Virus record (IMG/VR): IMGVR_UViG_3300031994_000043
Coordinates: 1-64,000 of that record
DNA from: a virus
Taxonomy: Duplodnaviria > Caudoviricetes
Direction: 5' to 3' (one strand)
Length of the DNA: 64,000 nt
Position numbers and translations under genes: made by a program. Below the pieces are notes generated by a model. The model did not search any database. It was not told the origin of the DNA and worked only from the letters and a program-made list of their open reading frames with translations. Below, piece by piece: positions 15,689 through 38,139 of the stretch (the first letter of the stretch is position 1; each line of letters opens with the position of its first letter).

Positions 15689-15920
15689 TATTTTGTCCTT
15701 TTGTTAAAATTTAAATCTCGGGGGATTTTCACCACCATCTTCAGCTTGGTATTCTGCTGCACTAGAGTCTAAGCACTTTATGCTACGAGATTTGTTTTTA
15801 CATATACAAATATAGATTATTTTGCGGTATTTGTCAATCAAAGTTTTGTAAACTTTTATAAACAAAAAATGCCTCCGTTTGATAGGAGGCGGCCTTAATT
15901 GGTAATTATGAAAAAAAACT

Positions 15921-19549: not shown

Positions 19550-19635
19550 AAGAGGTGGAGGGATTCGGACCCCCGGACCCTTGCGGATCTCCTGTTTAGT
19601 AGACAGGCCTATTAAACCAGCTCTAGCACACCTCC
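19550..19635 (-). tRNA. tRNA-Ser(ACT)
   Basis: Cloverleaf with long variable arm; anticodon loop CTACTAA. Confidence 0.8.
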
Positions 19636-19644
19636 ATAAACCCG

Positions 19645-19800
19645 TTAGTAATCATACTTTTCGGATTGTTTCTTTTCAGTCTTTTCCTTCTTAATTCCAG
19701 CTTGTTTTGCGAAAGACTTTGCCATCTTTCTCATCTTTTCCCAACGGGCCTGTTTCTGTTCTTCAGTTTCCTTTTCTTTTACTTCTTTTCTCTTTTTCAT
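19645..19800 (-). CDS. Small basic protein (51 aa)
   Basis: MKKRKEVKEKETEEQ...; AAGGA RBS; below ORF-track cutoff. Confidence 0.55.
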   Translation of the reverse strand: MKKRKEVKEKETEEQKQARWEKMRKMAKSFAKQAGIKKEKTEKKQSEKYDY

Positions 19801-33779: not shown

Positions 33780-34247
33780 TTTCTAGTTTGCTATCGCAAA
33801 CAAAAACATTTGAAGGATAAACCTTCAAATGTTTTTTATTTTCATAAAGGAGAATTATTAGTAACAATCTCTTTTTGGGTAACTGGGAAGTTTGAAACTT
33901 CAGCCTATTTAGGAACACTAGAACTGAAGTTTTTGATTCTTTTTGGTATAACGTATGAAGAATCACTTCTGTGGGATTTACGAATAAGCTTATGGGTCGG
34001 TCTTCCTGTACTCCAGCTACATCTTATTCAACCAAGGCGGCTATTTGTTAAACTTGCGAGGTTTAACTACGATGTTCTTTCATTCAGATGTGTACGAACT
34101 ATTACACAAAATGGCTATCCCTCTACCGATAGTGGCATTGAGTTGTACTTCGCTCCGAGGAAATAGACTTTCAAATGTCAATAGCCAAATATAGTAATTA
34201 TTACTTTATGTGTAAAAGTTTTTTATTTTTTAGATCTTTGGTTTTAG

Positions 34248-34320
34248 AGCCCTATTCGGGATTTGAACCCGAAACAGATGAGTGGAAGTCATCTATGTTA
34301 GCCAGTTACACTAATAGGAC
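34248..34320 (-). tRNA. tRNA-Gly(TCC)
   Basis: Loop CTTCCAC, U73. Confidence 0.85.
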
Positions 34321-34329
34321 TAATGTTCG

Positions 34330-34398
34330 TTGCAGGTATGGGTGCCGACCCCACTGCCACAAAGATATGAGCTTTATGTGTATGCCGATACTCCTGCA
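34330..34398 (-). tRNA. Atypical tRNA-Met(CAT)
   Basis: Loop CTCATAT; reduced D-arm, non-canonical T-loop. Confidence 0.5.
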
Positions 34399-34402
34399 AT
34401 AG

Positions 34403-34473
34403 TTGTTCGTGCTGGAATCGGACCAACATTAAGTGAGTCAGAGTCACCTGTACTACCGTTATACTAACGAACA
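34403..34473 (-). tRNA. tRNA-Gln(CTG)
   Basis: Loop CTCTGAC. Confidence 0.82.
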
Positions 34474-34480
34474 GTAATTT

Positions 34481-34556
34481 ATCCCAATGCCGGAGAACGA
34501 TTCCGAACTTCAAGTGCCACAAACTTGCGTGCTACCAGTTACACCACACCAGGGAT
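34481..34556 (-). tRNA. Atypical tRNA-His(GTG)
   Basis: Loop TTGTGGC; aberrant T-loop. Confidence 0.6.
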
Positions 34557-34563
34557 GAAGTAG

Positions 34564-34637
34564 TGCTCCATCAAGGACTCGGACCTTGGACTCATCGCTT
34601 AAGAGGCGATTACTCTGACCAACTGAGTTAATGGAGC
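34564..34637 (-). tRNA. tRNA-Lys(CTT)
   Basis: Loop CTCTTAA. Confidence 0.88.
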
Positions 34638-34643
34638 ATTTAG

Positions 34644-34717
34644 AGCGCTTGGAGAGATTTGAACTCCCGAATCGCGGAGTTGCAGTCCGCTGCATTACCA
34701 GGCTTTGCTACAAGCGC
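34644..34717 (-). tRNA. tRNA-Cys(GCA)
   Basis: Loop CTGCAAC, U73. Confidence 0.88.
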
Positions 34718-34780
34718 ATGAGATTACTGTGGAAATTTATTTAAATGGCGACGTATCCTCCACCACAGTAATCTTTTTAG

Positions 34781-34851
34781 AGCACCTATCCGGATTTGAA
34801 CCGGAGCTTCAACTTTGGTAAAGTCGCTTGCTACCACTACAACATAGGTGC
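34781..34851 (-). tRNA. tRNA-Gly(ACC)
   Basis: Loop TTACCAA, U73. Confidence 0.8.
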
Positions 34852-34863
34852 AAAATTTGTTCG

Positions 34864-34936
34864 TACTCCCGCCTGGATTTGAACCAGGAATACCAGGTTC
34901 GTAGCCTAGTGGTTTATCCAGTTAGCCTACGGGAGC
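34864..34936 (-). tRNA. tRNA-Arg(ACG)
   Basis: Loop CTACGAA. Confidence 0.88.
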
Positions 34937-34942
34937 ATTTAG

Positions 34943-35026
34943 CGGAGAATGAGAGACTTGAACTCCCAAGTGCCGAAACACAGCGGTTTTCAGGACCGCG
35001 CCCTTACCAATTAGGGGTAATTCTCC
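34943..35026 (-). tRNA. tRNA-Ser(TGA)
   Basis: Loop CCTGAAA, long variable arm, G73. Confidence 0.82.
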
Positions 35027-35030
35027 ATAG

Positions 35031-35114
35031 TAGCCCAGGTGGGAGTTGAACCCACATGCCCATAGGGCGCTTGCTTCTAAGGCAAGTACGTCTAGCCAAT
35101 TCCGTCACCAGGCC
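35031..35114 (-). tRNA. tRNA-Leu(TAG)
   Basis: Loop CTTAGAA, long variable arm. Confidence 0.88.
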
Positions 35115-35128
35115 ATAATTTGTTTTAA

Positions 35129-35199
35129 CAGAAGTACCAGGACTCGGACCCAGACGAACAGACTTGGAAACTGCCATGCTACCGTTACATCATACTCCT
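35129..35199 (-). tRNA. tRNA-Trp(CCA)
   Basis: Loop TTCCAAG, A1-T72, G73. Confidence 0.75.
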
Positions 35200-35205
35200 A
35201 TTTAG

Positions 35206-35279
35206 CGACACCGGCGGGATTCGGACCCGCGAATGATGGTTAGACAGACCACTGTGTTAGACCACTTCACCACGATGCC
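35206..35279 (-). tRNA. tRNA-Asp(GTC)
   Basis: Loop CTGTCTA, G73. Confidence 0.85.
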
Positions 35280-35285
35280 ATATAG

Positions 35286-35360
35286 TCCATAGGGATGGAT
35301 TTGAACCATCAGTCTCCACCTTATCAGAGTGGCAAACGGAACCAATCGTTATGCCTATGG
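35286..35360 (-). tRNA. tRNA-Ile(GAT)
   Basis: Loop CTGATAA; unusual D-arm. Confidence 0.75.
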
Positions 35361-35372
35361 ATAATTTGTTAG

Positions 35373-35445
35373 TGCCGCCGGGTGGAATCGGACCACCGAC
35401 GCGAAGCTCTTCAGGCTTCCGCTCTACCAACTGAGCTACAGCGGC
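35373..35445 (-). tRNA. tRNA-Phe(GAA)
   Basis: Loop CTGAAGA. Confidence 0.9.
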
Positions 35446-35451
35446 AAGTAG

Positions 35452-35525
35452 TGGATACAGACGGGGTTCGGACCCGTGACCTCTTCAGTGCTAATGAAGC
35501 GTTCTTCCAACTGAACTACTGACCC
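35452..35525 (-). tRNA. tRNA-Ala(AGC)
   Basis: Loop TTAGCAC, G3-U70, bulged U in acceptor. Confidence 0.8.
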
Positions 35526-35532
35526 AAAGTTA

Positions 35533-35607
35533 TGGACACATAAGGGATTTGAACCCTTGACATCCTGCGTGCAAGGCAGGCGTTCTACCAAACTGAACTA
35601 ATGGCCC
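35533..35607 (-). tRNA. tRNA-Ala(TGC)
   Basis: Loop CTTGCAC, G3-U70, bulged U in acceptor. Confidence 0.85.
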
Positions 35608-35614
35608 GTTTTCG

Positions 35615-35686
35615 TAGTACATTCGGGATTCGGACCCGAGTTTCCGCCTTGAAAGGGCAGCGAACTAACCGCTATTCTAATGTACC
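35615..35686 (-). tRNA. tRNA-Glu(TTC)
   Basis: Loop CTTTCAA. Confidence 0.85.
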
Positions 35687-35692
35687 GTTTCG

Positions 35693-35766
35693 TAGTGCTA
35701 TCCGGATTTGAACCGGAGTTTTAAGAGTGAAATTCTTATGTCCTAACCAAACTAGACGATAGCACC
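35693..35766 (-). tRNA. tRNA-Glu(TTC)
   Basis: Loop ATTTCAC. Confidence 0.82.
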
Positions 35767-35768
35767 AT

Positions 35769-35805
35769 AAAAGAAAAATCCCGTGGTTTGTGTTCCACAG
35801 GATTT
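35769..35805 (-). terminator. Attenuator terminator directly before tRNA array 2
   Basis: AAATCCTGTGG/CCACGGGATTT plus U-tract; overlaps antiterminator. Confidence 0.8.
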
Positions 35806-35830
35806 AATTTGTTACGCCGGAAAATTATAA

Positions 35831-35944
35831 CTAATCAAATGCCTGTGGAGAACCTCTATCTTCGCCTGCGAATGCACCTTCAAATCGTTCGTCAATGGCG
35901 AACCAATCCTGGGCGAGGCAAATGTGGGACTTAAGCATCATCAT
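35831..35944 (-). CDS. Leader peptide 2 (MMMLKSHICLAQDWFAIDERFEGAFAGEDRGSPQAFD)
   Basis: AAGGA RBS; last codons and stop pair with the terminator 5' arm. Confidence 0.78.
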   Translation of the reverse strand: MMMLKSHICLAQDWFAIDERFEGAFAGEDRGSPQAFD

Positions 35945-36137
35945 AATTTCTTTTTCCTTATATTGTATATATAACTTTTAATTCCTGTTTTTTGATTCTT
36001 TTGTTAAACACATCCAAAATAATTGTTATTGGTTTTTCAACCGCTACACAATCATTTTGTTTACATAGACAAATATAGTTTATTGTTTTTTATTTGTCAA
36101 TGGGTAAATGTAATAATTTTGATTTTTTTGATCTTCG

Positions 36138-36608
36138 TTATTTAAAGTCTTTTGCTAATTTAGCTTCTTTGATATATTCTTGCATAGCTTTTGAGGCTTC
36201 GCTTACTTCCATCCATTTGCCAAATTTAGTAACCAACTTCTGTAACTGTTCAAAAGTCAAATTCTTACAAACAGATTCAAAATCTTTCTGTATATTCCAC
36301 CAGTCGGGAACATTAGCATATCCAGTACCGGAGTAGGCAGGCGTGTAATAAAAACTGTATCTAGTATTATTCTTAACTGTACCAATTTTTATAATAGCGT
36401 CATATCCATATCCACTGTAACCAGATGAATTGAACGTGATTTTACATTCAATTCTCGGTTTGCTTTGTAGATTGCCTATAATGTCAAAGCAATCAAACTG
36501 CCCACCGAATTTTAATGTTGCTAGCTTATCAACTGCTACTTTAATGTTTTGGGCATTAGTTATAGCATTGTCGCATAAACTTTTAATTCTTTCTTCTGCG
36601 TAACTCAT
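36138..36608 (-). CDS. DF-tail family protein
   Basis: Ends KEAKLAKDFK. Confidence 0.7.
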   Translation of the reverse strand: MSYAEERIKSLCDNAITNAQNIKVAVDKLATLKFGGQFDCFDIIGNLQSKPRIECKITFNSSGYSGYGYDAIIKIGTVKNNTRYSFYYTPAYSGTGYANVPDWWNIQKDFESVCKNLTFEQLQKLVTKFGKWMEVSEASKAMQEYIKEAKLAKDFK

Positions 36609-36675
36609 TTAAACTCCTATGAAAAAGAGGGTTAGGTTGTTACACCCAACCCTCTCGGGAGGTACAACAAACTAA

Positions 36676-38139
36676 CTATTCTTCAATGGAGAAGAGCTGT
36701 TCAGTAGTGAGATGATACAAACACCAATCCGGGATGTAACTCTCAGTACCTGGCGTGGAAATCATAAAGATTTTCTTGAAGAAATGTTCCGGCTTCGGGA
36801 AATCAAATCCCATATCAGTGAAATAGATAATACCATCAAATTTCGCCTTTCTTTCCTTAATTGCTTCAAGAACGCATTCAGGATTCGTGCATCCGCGACC
36901 AATCAGCTTGAAGTCGGACTTCTTCTGCTTCTGTTCGGTGAATGGACCGCAAACACCATCCCAGAAACAATAGGACACATCAGCATGTTTTACGAACTTG
37001 TTCACAATCGCACAACCACGTTCCACATCCTTATCGTCCATAGAACCGGAGCAGTCAATCGCAACAAGAATACGAGAACGGAACTTATGCTTCTTACCAG
37101 GAACATCAAATCCCTTTCTACGATCTGGTCGCATACGGGTATCTTCAGTGTACTTATCCACTGTGTTCGCCTTGAATCTCTTCAGGACTGTCTTCGGGTC
37201 AAATTTCGGAGTATTGGCAGCAAGAATAGCCTGGAGCAAACCACCACTAATGTTACCCCACTGAGAAGCATTTTCTGCAATGTGGTGAGTGATTTCCTGG
37301 ATTTCCTGGTCTACCAGAGTATTTTCTTCCCAACCTTCCGTAGCCTTTTCAGCTGCGTCCTGGGAGCCGTCAAAATACTCATCCAATGCATCCTTCGTCG
37401 GGTTTCCGCTTCCGCCCTTACCCTGTTGGTTGCCCTTGCCCTGGCCCTGTCCATTACCTTGTCCCTGACCCTGGCTTTGTCCCTGACCCTTTCCTTGGCC
37501 TTGGCCTTGTCCCTGTCCTTGACCCTGTCCCTGGCCCTGTCCGCCACCACCCTGCTTTTCAGCGCAATCCATCAACATAGAGAACACCTTTTCAAGGAAC
37601 CAGTGGTCTTCTTCATTGAACTTGATTTTAGCGGTTTCTTGACGGAATTTTGCCTTGTTCGGAAATTCCTGGAGCATCTGCATAACTTCTTGCTTGTGAG
37701 TATTCAACACAGAACGCTGATTTTCGTCAAACGAGATATAGTCAGATGCCTTCTTGAAAATCTGGAGCGGGTAGCATTTACGAGTAGTGATATGGTGCAA
37801 AGCAATTCGCAAACATTCACTAAACATAATGTAAGCCAAAATGGAACATTCCTGAATCTTGTTCAACCAAATCGGGTTATATTCCATGTTGATAGCACTA
37901 CCAGTGCCACGGCAATTCAAGCGGAGAGTGACCTGCGGGTCCTTGACCGGCTTTAAATCGCACAAACCAAAATATGTGAGAACGGCAGGTTCAAACTGCA
38001 TCAACTTCACTGCTGAAGTAATGAGCTGTTCGGACTTGGAATTACATTCATCCCACAGTTCCATATATTTCTTGTTATCTTCCTTATAAAGCTGGGCAAG
38101 TTCGTCCTTGGGAAGATTTGAAATTTGAATTAGAGCCAT
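36676..38139 (-). CDS. VWA-domain protein (DUF2201-like) with Gly-Gln repeat linker
   Basis: VAIDCSGSM MIDAS, GRGCT, IYFTD; next to MoxR ATPase. Confidence 0.85.
   Translation of the reverse strand: MALIQISNLPKDELAQLYKEDNKKYMELWDECNSKSEQLITSAVKLMQFEPAVLTYFGLCDLKPVKDPQVTLRLNCRGTGSAINMEYNPIWLNKIQECSILAYIMFSECLRIALHHITTRKCYPLQIFKKASDYISFDENQRSVLNTHKQEVMQMLQEFPNKAKFRQETAKIKFNEEDHWFLEKVFSMLMDCAEKQGGGGQGQGQGQGQGQGQGQGKGQGQSQGQGQGNGQGQGKGNQQGKGGSGNPTKDALDEYFDGSQDAAEKATEGWEENTLVDQEIQEITHHIAENASQWGNISGGLLQAILAANTPKFDPKTVLKRFKANTVDKYTEDTRMRPDRRKGFDVPGKKHKFRSRILVAIDCSGSMDDKDVERGCAIVNKFVKHADVSYCFWDGVCGPFTEQKQKKSDFKLIGRGCTNPECVLEAIKERKAKFDGIIYFTDMGFDFPKPEHFFKKIFMISTPGTESYIPDWCLYHLTTEQLFSIEE

Follow-up and report, generated by a model that had tools for sequence, protein, structure and literature searches.

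We analyzed the sequence preceding a cluster of 17 tRNA genes, tRNA array 2, in a virus of the class Caudoviricetes and found there a leader that probably acts as a ribosome-coupled transcription attenuator. Judging from its sequence, the leader would set how much transcription from a promoter at 36100..36072 continues into the 17-tRNA operon, providing feedback on tRNA supply. The stretch analyzed, hereafter the window, comprises the leading 64 kb of a viral contig of 109 kb from IMG/VR (IMGVR_UViG_3300031994_000043; CheckV completeness estimate, 32%), and all features of the array-2 leader lie on its minus strand. An attenuator is the best reading because of the architecture of the leader, a census in its short peptide of the amino acids served by the downstream tRNAs, a replicate of the arrangement ahead of a second tRNA array (array 1), and conservation among relatives. 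The parts of the leader, the mutual exclusivity of its helices, their conservation, and the non-random census can be read directly from the DNA.

tRNA array 2 (35766..34247, minus strand) consists of 17 genes on which ARAGORN and Rfam agree, namely Glu (two copies), Ala(tgc), Ala(agc), Phe, Ile, Asp, Trp, Leu(tag), Ser(tga), Arg(acg), Gly(acc), Cys, Lys(ctt), His, Gln(ctg), and Gly(tcc). The first twelve are separated by intergenic spacers of 3-13 nucleotides (nt), and the array as a whole serves 14 amino acids (E, A, F, I, D, W, L, S, R, G, C, K, H, and Q). Ahead of it, an open reading frame (ORF) scan found the 37-codon leader ORF with a TAG stop (35944..35831; MMMLKSHICLAQDWFAIDERFEGAFAGEDRGSPQAFD) that an earlier note on this DNA, made from the sequence alone, had described. 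This ORF is accompanied by a Shine-Dalgarno sequence (AAGGA, 35959..35955, 10 nt before the ATG) and by a sigma-70-type promoter (TTGACA-17-TATATT) that matches 11 of 12 consensus positions and is present in all relatives. Gene callers of other pipelines also predicted the leader ORF in other contigs.

Residues 4-23 of the encoded peptide (LKSHICLAQDWFAIDERFEG) contain all 14 amino acids of array 2 and no others. The earlier note had counted 15 such amino acids; this holds for the 14 but not for Met, as neither ARAGORN nor Rfam detected a tRNA-Met in array 2 or in the whole 109-kb contig. N, T, Y, and V are missing from the leader peptide as well as from array 2, as had been claimed. Random peptides with the amino acid composition of the phage matched the census at a frequency of 5.5e-6; calculated analytically, the probability for one 20-residue window is 6e-7. 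Of the 82,246 windows without a stop in the six frames of the contig, only those of the leader reached the census. Mononucleotide shuffles of the ORF reached it in 5 of 298,505 cases and codon-position-specific shuffles in 2 of 383,814. The census is thus far beyond chance, at about 1e-5 under three nulls, and the match is better than that of random ORFs.

At the codon level, we used a null in which synonymous codons were drawn from the phage's own usage with the peptide held fixed. Codons 4-24 all fall within boxes read by array-2 tRNAs (P = 0.004 at box level, given the peptide), which upholds at that level the proposed match of split-box codons to the array. Codons outside the array-2 boxes are limited to ATG at positions 2-3, AGA at 30, and CCA at 33, so the claim that only AGA and CCA are off-array needs the ATG codons added to it.

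The end of the ORF is tied to the terminator by a long alternative helix. Codons 33-37, the stop, and 3 further nt form the 5' arm of an antiterminator (35848..35828), whose 3' arm (35814..35795) includes the 5' arm of the terminator. RNAfold predicted 20 pairs here, in line with the pairing of about 20 bp proposed earlier, and the helix (-19.6 kcal/mol) belongs to the minimum-energy state of the whole window leader. A 25-nt spacer separates the ORF from the intrinsic terminator (35805..35767), which has an 11-bp stem with an 8-nt loop (35805..35776; stem energy, -14.8 kcal/mol) and a U-run (TTCTTTTAT, 35775..35767) whose last base directly precedes tRNA-Glu, starting at 35766. Because they share the arm 35805..35795, terminator and antiterminator are mutually exclusive. 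No promoter-like site was found on the minus strand within array 2, and there is no room for one between the terminator and the tRNAs; therefore, any expression of array-2 tRNAs must pass the terminator.

To follow the predicted effect of ribosome position, a 28-nt footprint was masked at each A-site codon of the window sequence before folding. In the minimum-energy folds, the antiterminator persisted for A-site codons 1-9 and 13-28 and gave way to the terminator from codon 29 to the stop. These model folds reproduce the predicted map in which a stalled ribosome would leave the antiterminator free. AGA 30 and CCA 33, both codons of array-1 boxes, fall where a stall would not antiterminate, and this part of the claim about the off-array codons stands. 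Based on the census and the masked folds, we place the proposed sensing zone at codons 4-25 (35935..35870).

The leader is well conserved. The gene upstream of the promoter (36608..36138, minus strand) encodes a 156-residue protein with 113 clusters of relatives at 69-100% identity, and about 40 metagenome loci, from rumen, pig gut, and similar sources, yielded 21 distinct leader sequences, of which 18 entered the alignment. All 21 possess the promoter, Shine-Dalgarno sequence, ORF, spacer, both arms of the antiterminator, and the terminator, although the neighboring protein in this set is only 76-100% identical. AGGA is invariant in 18 of 18 aligned relatives at a spacing of 8-11 nt from the start codon, and the ORF is open in all 21 homologues with 31-37 codons. 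Mean pairwise identity reached 95% in codons 1-24 and 92% in the spacer and switch, compared with 75% in the promoter and 5' untranslated region (UTR) and 76% in the ORF tail. The leader occurs in every array-bearing locus and is absent from both array-less lineages (L016-21 and L039-46), in which the neighboring gene runs into a cow-rumen-2 RNA or into inserted ORFs, respectively.

The changes that do occur preserve the census. Variable sites in codons 4-24 comprise five synonymous third positions, each change staying within the box of the same array tRNA, and two replacements (A11V and A24E); all replacements in codons 2-25 (M2I, M2L, L4M, A11V, A24E, and F25V) keep the census, and codon 25 is Phe in the window and Val in most relatives. 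Third positions account for four of six variable sites in codons 5-24, too few for significance alone. In the ORF tail, frameshifting indels produce five different C-termini, three of which end in Pro-stop (CCA-TAG), and the stop is always a TAG inside the antiterminator 5' arm. The terminator stem is invariant, with 99.5% of cells paired across relatives, and the antiterminator has 94.6% of cells paired, its four variable pairs changing on one side only and remaining paired. ORF nt 34-68 are 100% identical in all relatives, synonymous sites included, while flanking codons vary, which points to an added RNA-level constraint around a 5-bp hairpin with a 7-nt loop within codons 14-20 (35904..35886). 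This hairpin never varies and might perhaps serve as a pause signal for RNA polymerase.

A second leader, ahead of array 1, shows a complementary pattern. Sequence reading identified an ORF of 24 codons (MNQIINTQIRLPKHYLEDSGISVV; 27072..27001, minus strand) that begins four bases after the motif TTATATATACAAT, the same as in the array-2 leader, and, read by eye, an antiterminator is formed by its codons 19-23 together with the 5' arm of its own 9-bp terminator, the end of which lies at about 26933. Of the nine amino acids served by array 1, the first 15 residues include eight (N, Q, T, R, L, P, K, and Y; P = 0.003), and array-1 boxes account for 11 of the 15 codons (P = 0.017). The two leaders draw on reciprocal boxes, CAA/AAA/AGA/TTG in the array-1 leader against CAG/AAG/CGA/CTY in the array-2 leader (Fisher P = 9e-4 and 3e-3). 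One relative retains the array-1 leader with census-preserving changes. Two promoter-like sites (26900 and 26714) lie between its terminator and the first tRNA, and control of array 1 would therefore be partial. Another ORF, at 26673 (MRLVRETNEK...), was dropped as a candidate array-1 leader, since it has neither a Shine-Dalgarno sequence nor a terminator.

The two leaders also share a motif, TTATATATACAATAT, which lies in an A-rich stretch at 35961..35975 in the array-2 leader and at 27071-27086 in the array-1 leader. TATATATACAAT occurs without mismatch in the window only at 35973 and 27084, and TATATATA has only four occurrences in the whole 109-kb contig. With so few sites, TATATATA was rejected as a general late promoter; the motif could instead be a specialized promoter element or the target of a regulator.

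For the attenuator, we infer that the ORF is translated, that stalling at single codons takes place, that polymerase and ribosome are coupled, and that regulation has the sign described here. RNA polymerase would transcribe the leader while a ribosome translates the short ORF. An unhindered ribosome would reach the stop codon within the antiterminator 5' arm and mask this arm, so that the terminator would form and transcription would end in the U-run before tRNA-Glu. A ribosome delayed in codons 1-28 would leave the 3' end of the ORF to pair with the terminator 5' arm, and the array would be transcribed. With one or a few codons per served amino acid in codons 4-25, a scarce, uncharged, or damaged tRNA would lead to more tRNA output, and accumulating phage tRNAs would switch the array off again in a negative feedback. 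The most likely trigger is slow decoding of the census codons.

Several observations weigh against this reading. The leader codons are scattered, with one to five per amino acid and no tandem runs, and single codons should stall a ribosome far less than classical codon runs. Under strict wobble, the codon match has a P of only 0.16, because CTT, CTC, and TCC are not classically read by the U34 anticodons TAG and TGA (likewise GTC in relatives); for these codons, the split-box match holds at box level only. No anti-antiterminator (1:2 pairing) or other pairing to the antiterminator arm was identified in the leader, and untranslated transcripts would therefore read through. Compensatory double changes were found in neither terminator nor antiterminator across relatives; both helices are simply conserved. 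In the leader types of L056, L014, and L027, the antiterminator reaches only about -13.5 kcal/mol, less than the terminator, and equilibrium folds predict termination whatever the ribosome position; the switch there must therefore act kinetically, the helix that is transcribed earlier folding before the other. Since the antiterminator of the classical trp leader is likewise less stable than the terminator, the weakness in these three types is not disqualifying. A pure census also leaves the conserved residue order, the invariant codons 12-23, and a core resembling the leader peptide TnaC unexplained.

Further counter-evidence comes from array content. Co-variation of leader codons with the tRNAs of relatives, to which the earlier note had looked, was not found: the leader stays almost unchanged as tRNAs come and go in the arrays. 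A Val co-variation suggested by L004, which has a Val codon and an extra tRNA-Val, was removed by further loci. L015 has tRNA-Val and a leader without a Val codon, and L026, L048/49, and L032-35 have a Val codon without tRNA-Val, L026 also lacking tRNA-Phe. In L047-56 and L032-35, the Ser, Arg, Gly(acc), Cys, and Lys tRNAs have been lost, a 285-324-residue ORF taking the place of these five, and the leader keeps the corresponding codons. In L064, a full leader stands before only two tRNAs. The census fits the full, probably ancestral 15-amino-acid array, but the leader is not re-tuned as arrays decay.

An alternative is suggested by the TnaC-like core (residues 6-21, SHICLAQDWFAIDERF; 35929..35882). 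The only Pfam family matched by the peptide was Tna_leader (PF08053; E = 0.005-0.007; 16.7-17.1 bits against a cut-off of 25), and the only NCBIfam family was tnaC_leader (TIGR02616; E = 0.013-0.023; 14.8-15.6 bits against a cut-off of 23.55). Sequence matches in the PDB were likewise limited to TnaC chains from stalled-ribosome structures (E = 0.63-1). A gapless alignment places the core on TnaC residues 4-19 and leaves H, I, C, W, F, I, and D in common, and none of 200,000 composition-preserving shuffles reached the observed TnaC score; therefore, the residue order is non-random with respect to TnaC. The critical residues of TnaC are W12, D16, I19, and P24, of which W12 and D16 form the tryptophan sensor, while P24 and the stop codon form the stalling domain (PMC10941005). 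Equivalents of the sensor pair, W14 and D18, are present here at the same distance of four residues (WFAID, compared with WFNID in TnaC).

On this basis, the leader could instead encode a TnaC-type arrest peptide that senses free L-tryptophan or another small molecule in the exit tunnel, with arrest at a fixed codon setting the switch and the census being secondary or coincidental. We consider this unlikely. Such an arrest peptide would account for a conserved residue order in which five synonymous changes are tolerated, and arrest with residue 26, the equivalent of TnaC P24, in the P site would leave the antiterminator arm free. However, the scores, at 16.8 and 14.8 bits, fall under the curated cut-offs, the equivalent of I19 is Phe (F21), and residue 26 is Ala, or Lys in the L014 type, within a segment that varies among tail types. 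Pro-stop is absent at 12 residues after the Trp and, where it does occur, lies 17 or 19 residues after it. From the sub-cut-off scores, F21, and the lack of Pro-stop at that distance, we conclude that the peptide is not a member of the TnaC family; its sequence suggests that it may be derived from TnaC or may converge on the same tunnel contacts. Furthermore, the stop is UAG rather than UGA, the terminator is intrinsic rather than Rho-dependent, and neither the census nor the complementary array-1 leader, whose peptide has no TnaC similarity in Pfam or NCBIfam, is explained. Ligand-dependent arrest of the TnaC kind is accordingly retained as a live rival or an added input of low probability.

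The two ideas may also be combined. All four off-array residues of TnaC in the alignment (V, T, N, and N) are replaced here by array amino acids (L, A, A, and E). Tentatively, and with little weight, the leader might be a hybrid sensor that began as a nascent-chain module of TnaC, perhaps acquired from a gammaproteobacterial host, and in which each residue outside the tunnel-contacting core was rewritten to an amino acid of the downstream tRNAs. Exit-tunnel sensing, either of a ligand or of a general slowing of elongation and termination, would then be joined within one 37-codon ORF to a 14-15-input read-out of aminoacyl-tRNA supply, and the two would gate an entire tRNA operon. If this hybrid were true, then together with the complementary array-1 leader it would imply separate homeostatic control of two tRNA sets.

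A more conventional possibility is an ordinary small-protein gene, in which a micropeptide of 31-37 residues is followed by a leaky terminator or insulator that dampens read-through constitutively, the census and the alternative helix being coincidental. The preserved order of the N-terminal 24 residues and the gene calls in other contigs agree with such a gene, as do a leader that is unaltered while the array shrinks and switch helices without covariation. This explanation is improbable, since it must treat as accidents both a census at about 1e-5 and a second leader with reciprocal codon use, and the 20-bp helix ties the end of the ORF exactly to the terminator arm. A C-terminal third that is free to frameshift is unusual for a functional micropeptide; moreover, codons 12-23 are invariant even at synonymous sites, and the leader is lost along with the array.

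Least likely of all is an untranslated structured RNA for tRNA-precursor processing or stability (for example, an entry site for RNase P or RNase E/III, or a 3'-protected leader fragment) with an accidental ORF. In its favor, the G+C content of the leader exceeds that of the genome, the core is invariant, there are several hairpins, of which that in the 5' UTR shows clear covariation, and a hairpin and U-run stand beside the RNase P cleavage site of tRNA-Glu. However, both the Shine-Dalgarno sequence and the start codon are kept at a suitable distance from each other, four to five indel-bearing tail types all leave the frame open, codons 4-24 vary mostly at synonymous third positions, no Rfam family was found in the leader at E up to 1, and the census is left unexplained. 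The untranslated-RNA and micropeptide explanations account for less than either an attenuator or a TnaC-type peptide. The Rfam search (cmscan of 33800-36300, E up to 1) returned tRNAs, cow-rumen-2, and chance-level matches, with no His_leader, Leu_leader, Thr_leader, Trp_leader, or T-box match. In the covarying hairpin of the 5' UTR (36058..36016; 43 nt, at the 5' end of the transcript), six base pairs have undergone compensatory double changes, and across the 18 aligned sequences, 0 of 500 shuffles reached the observed covariation; the hairpin may stabilize this end of the transcript.

The attenuator proposed here resembles the leaders of amino acid operons, such as ilvGMEDA (Ile/Leu/Val), thr (Thr/Ile), trpL, hisL, leuL, and pheL, whose anatomy is well established. 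It shares with them a promoter-proximal short ORF with a Shine-Dalgarno sequence, reporter codons, a terminator before the regulated genes, and an antiterminator that shares a terminator strand and is masked by a ribosome at the stop codon. In contrast, the regulated genes are tRNAs rather than biosynthetic enzymes, the system is phage-encoded, and no Rfam leader family matches it. Fourteen amino acids are represented by one to five scattered codons each, whereas the classical leaders carry tandem runs for one to three, and without a 1:2 anti-antiterminator the untranslated default would be read-through.

The likeness to TnaC lies in the HIC-x4-WF-x-ID core, in the control of downstream transcription by ribosome position on a leader ORF, and in the Pro-stop ending of several relatives. 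Beyond the differences in score, in the residue at I19, in Pro-stop position, and in the stop codon given above, TnaC acts through a rut site and Rho on tnaA/tnaB, whereas the leader here has an intrinsic terminator and an antiterminator upstream of tRNAs. T-box riboswitches likewise sense tRNA status in a 5' leader, where a choice between terminator and antiterminator sets the output of a translation-supply gene. Unlike the array-2 leader, a T-box binds one specific uncharged tRNA through RNA-RNA contacts and needs no translation, and its targets are synthetase, transport, and biosynthesis genes rather than tRNAs.

Our literature search found no paper on leader-peptide control of tRNA genes, and a full-text search combining phage tRNA arrays with leader peptides had no results. 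To our knowledge, hardly anything has been established on how phages control the tRNA genes they carry. Bacterial tRNA operons are controlled at the promoter, by growth rate and the stringent response, and not by attenuation. Phage tRNA sets have been described as replacing depleted or cleaved host tRNAs and as a counter-defense against tRNA-targeting nucleases (PMC10264068, PMC11555353, PMC11464382). As far as these accounts go, they concern tRNA function, and they provide a biological rationale for the leader described here. A link between the leader and anticodon nucleases, as raised in the earlier note, is speculation.

If the attenuator reading is true, a leader whose codons call the roll of the downstream tRNAs would sense decoding capacity through many inputs within a compact element. 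It would mechanistically link depletion of host tRNAs, whether by codon mismatch, host shut-off, or a tRNA-cleaving defense, to the supply of phage tRNAs, and it could find a second use in synthetic systems that sense translational capacity. With the TnaC-like core, it also becomes conceivable that arrest-peptide modules have been put to use beyond the tna operon.

We also examined how far the leader extends and what surrounds it. In G001, a relative whose ATPase is 41% identical and which carries 29 tRNAs, no homologous leader or terminator was found before the Lys(ctt) block in the part of the region that was read, and the leader seems restricted to this clade. A megablast search for cultured-phage DNA matching 35600-36700 found nothing among 50,697 phage records. 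Searches of IMG/VR with the exact first-tRNA sequence, the leader core, and a back-translated peptide pattern each gave one relative contig only, and eight further loci returned by a degenerate terminator pattern were discarded as unrelated and without tRNAs. One relative sits on a 312-kb contig, indicating a large phage. The contig containing the window encodes tail, terminase-like, and HMC-glucosyltransferase-like proteins, and the best-covering matches of its ATPase among cultured phages are Vibrio phages at about 27% identity. The promoter sequence of the array-2 leader recurs at 15797-15838 and 20211-20240.

The array itself is an insertion hotspot. ORFs of 285-324 residues with a weak N-terminal C2H2 zinc-finger-like match lie at L049:2003-2860, L034:6474-7448, and L062:6673-7635, the first two replacing five tRNAs and the last only Ser(tga) and Arg(acg). 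In L057-61, ORFs are inserted exactly at the 5' end of tRNA-Glu (L057:5844-7071); the first of these reads like a homing endonuclease, and the 359-residue insert in L057 had no Pfam match. The ORFs inserted ahead of the cow-rumen-2 RNA in L039 are TnpB-like. The second of the two tRNAs of L064 (L064:5348-5420) has the anticodon TCA; ARAGORN calls it selenocysteine (SeC), and it is possibly an opal-reading tRNA.

Several tRNAs in the window have A34 anticodons that are unusual in bacteria, namely Ser(act), Gly(acc), and Ala(agc) (19550-19635, 34780-34851, and 35453-35525, minus strand). The usual A34 tRNA, Arg(acg), is also present, and one relative has Gly(gcc) in place of Gly(acc). Just 3' of array 2, a cow-rumen-2 RNA (33969-34073, minus strand; Rfam, 105 bits against a cut-off of 66) has its own promoter-like site (34216..34188) and a terminator-like hairpin (33802-33836). 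A lysine-rich ORF of about 50 residues lies directly upstream of a tRNA at 19645-19800 (minus strand) and at L068:14249-14398; it is conserved between the window phage and this distant relative (ATPase 41% identical), is not a census leader, and is not followed by a terminator. Upstream of the array-2 leader, a 487-residue protein (36676-38139, minus strand) contains a long GQ/GK dipeptide repeat; in relatives it matches DUF2201_N and is encoded beside a MoxR-like AAA ATPase.

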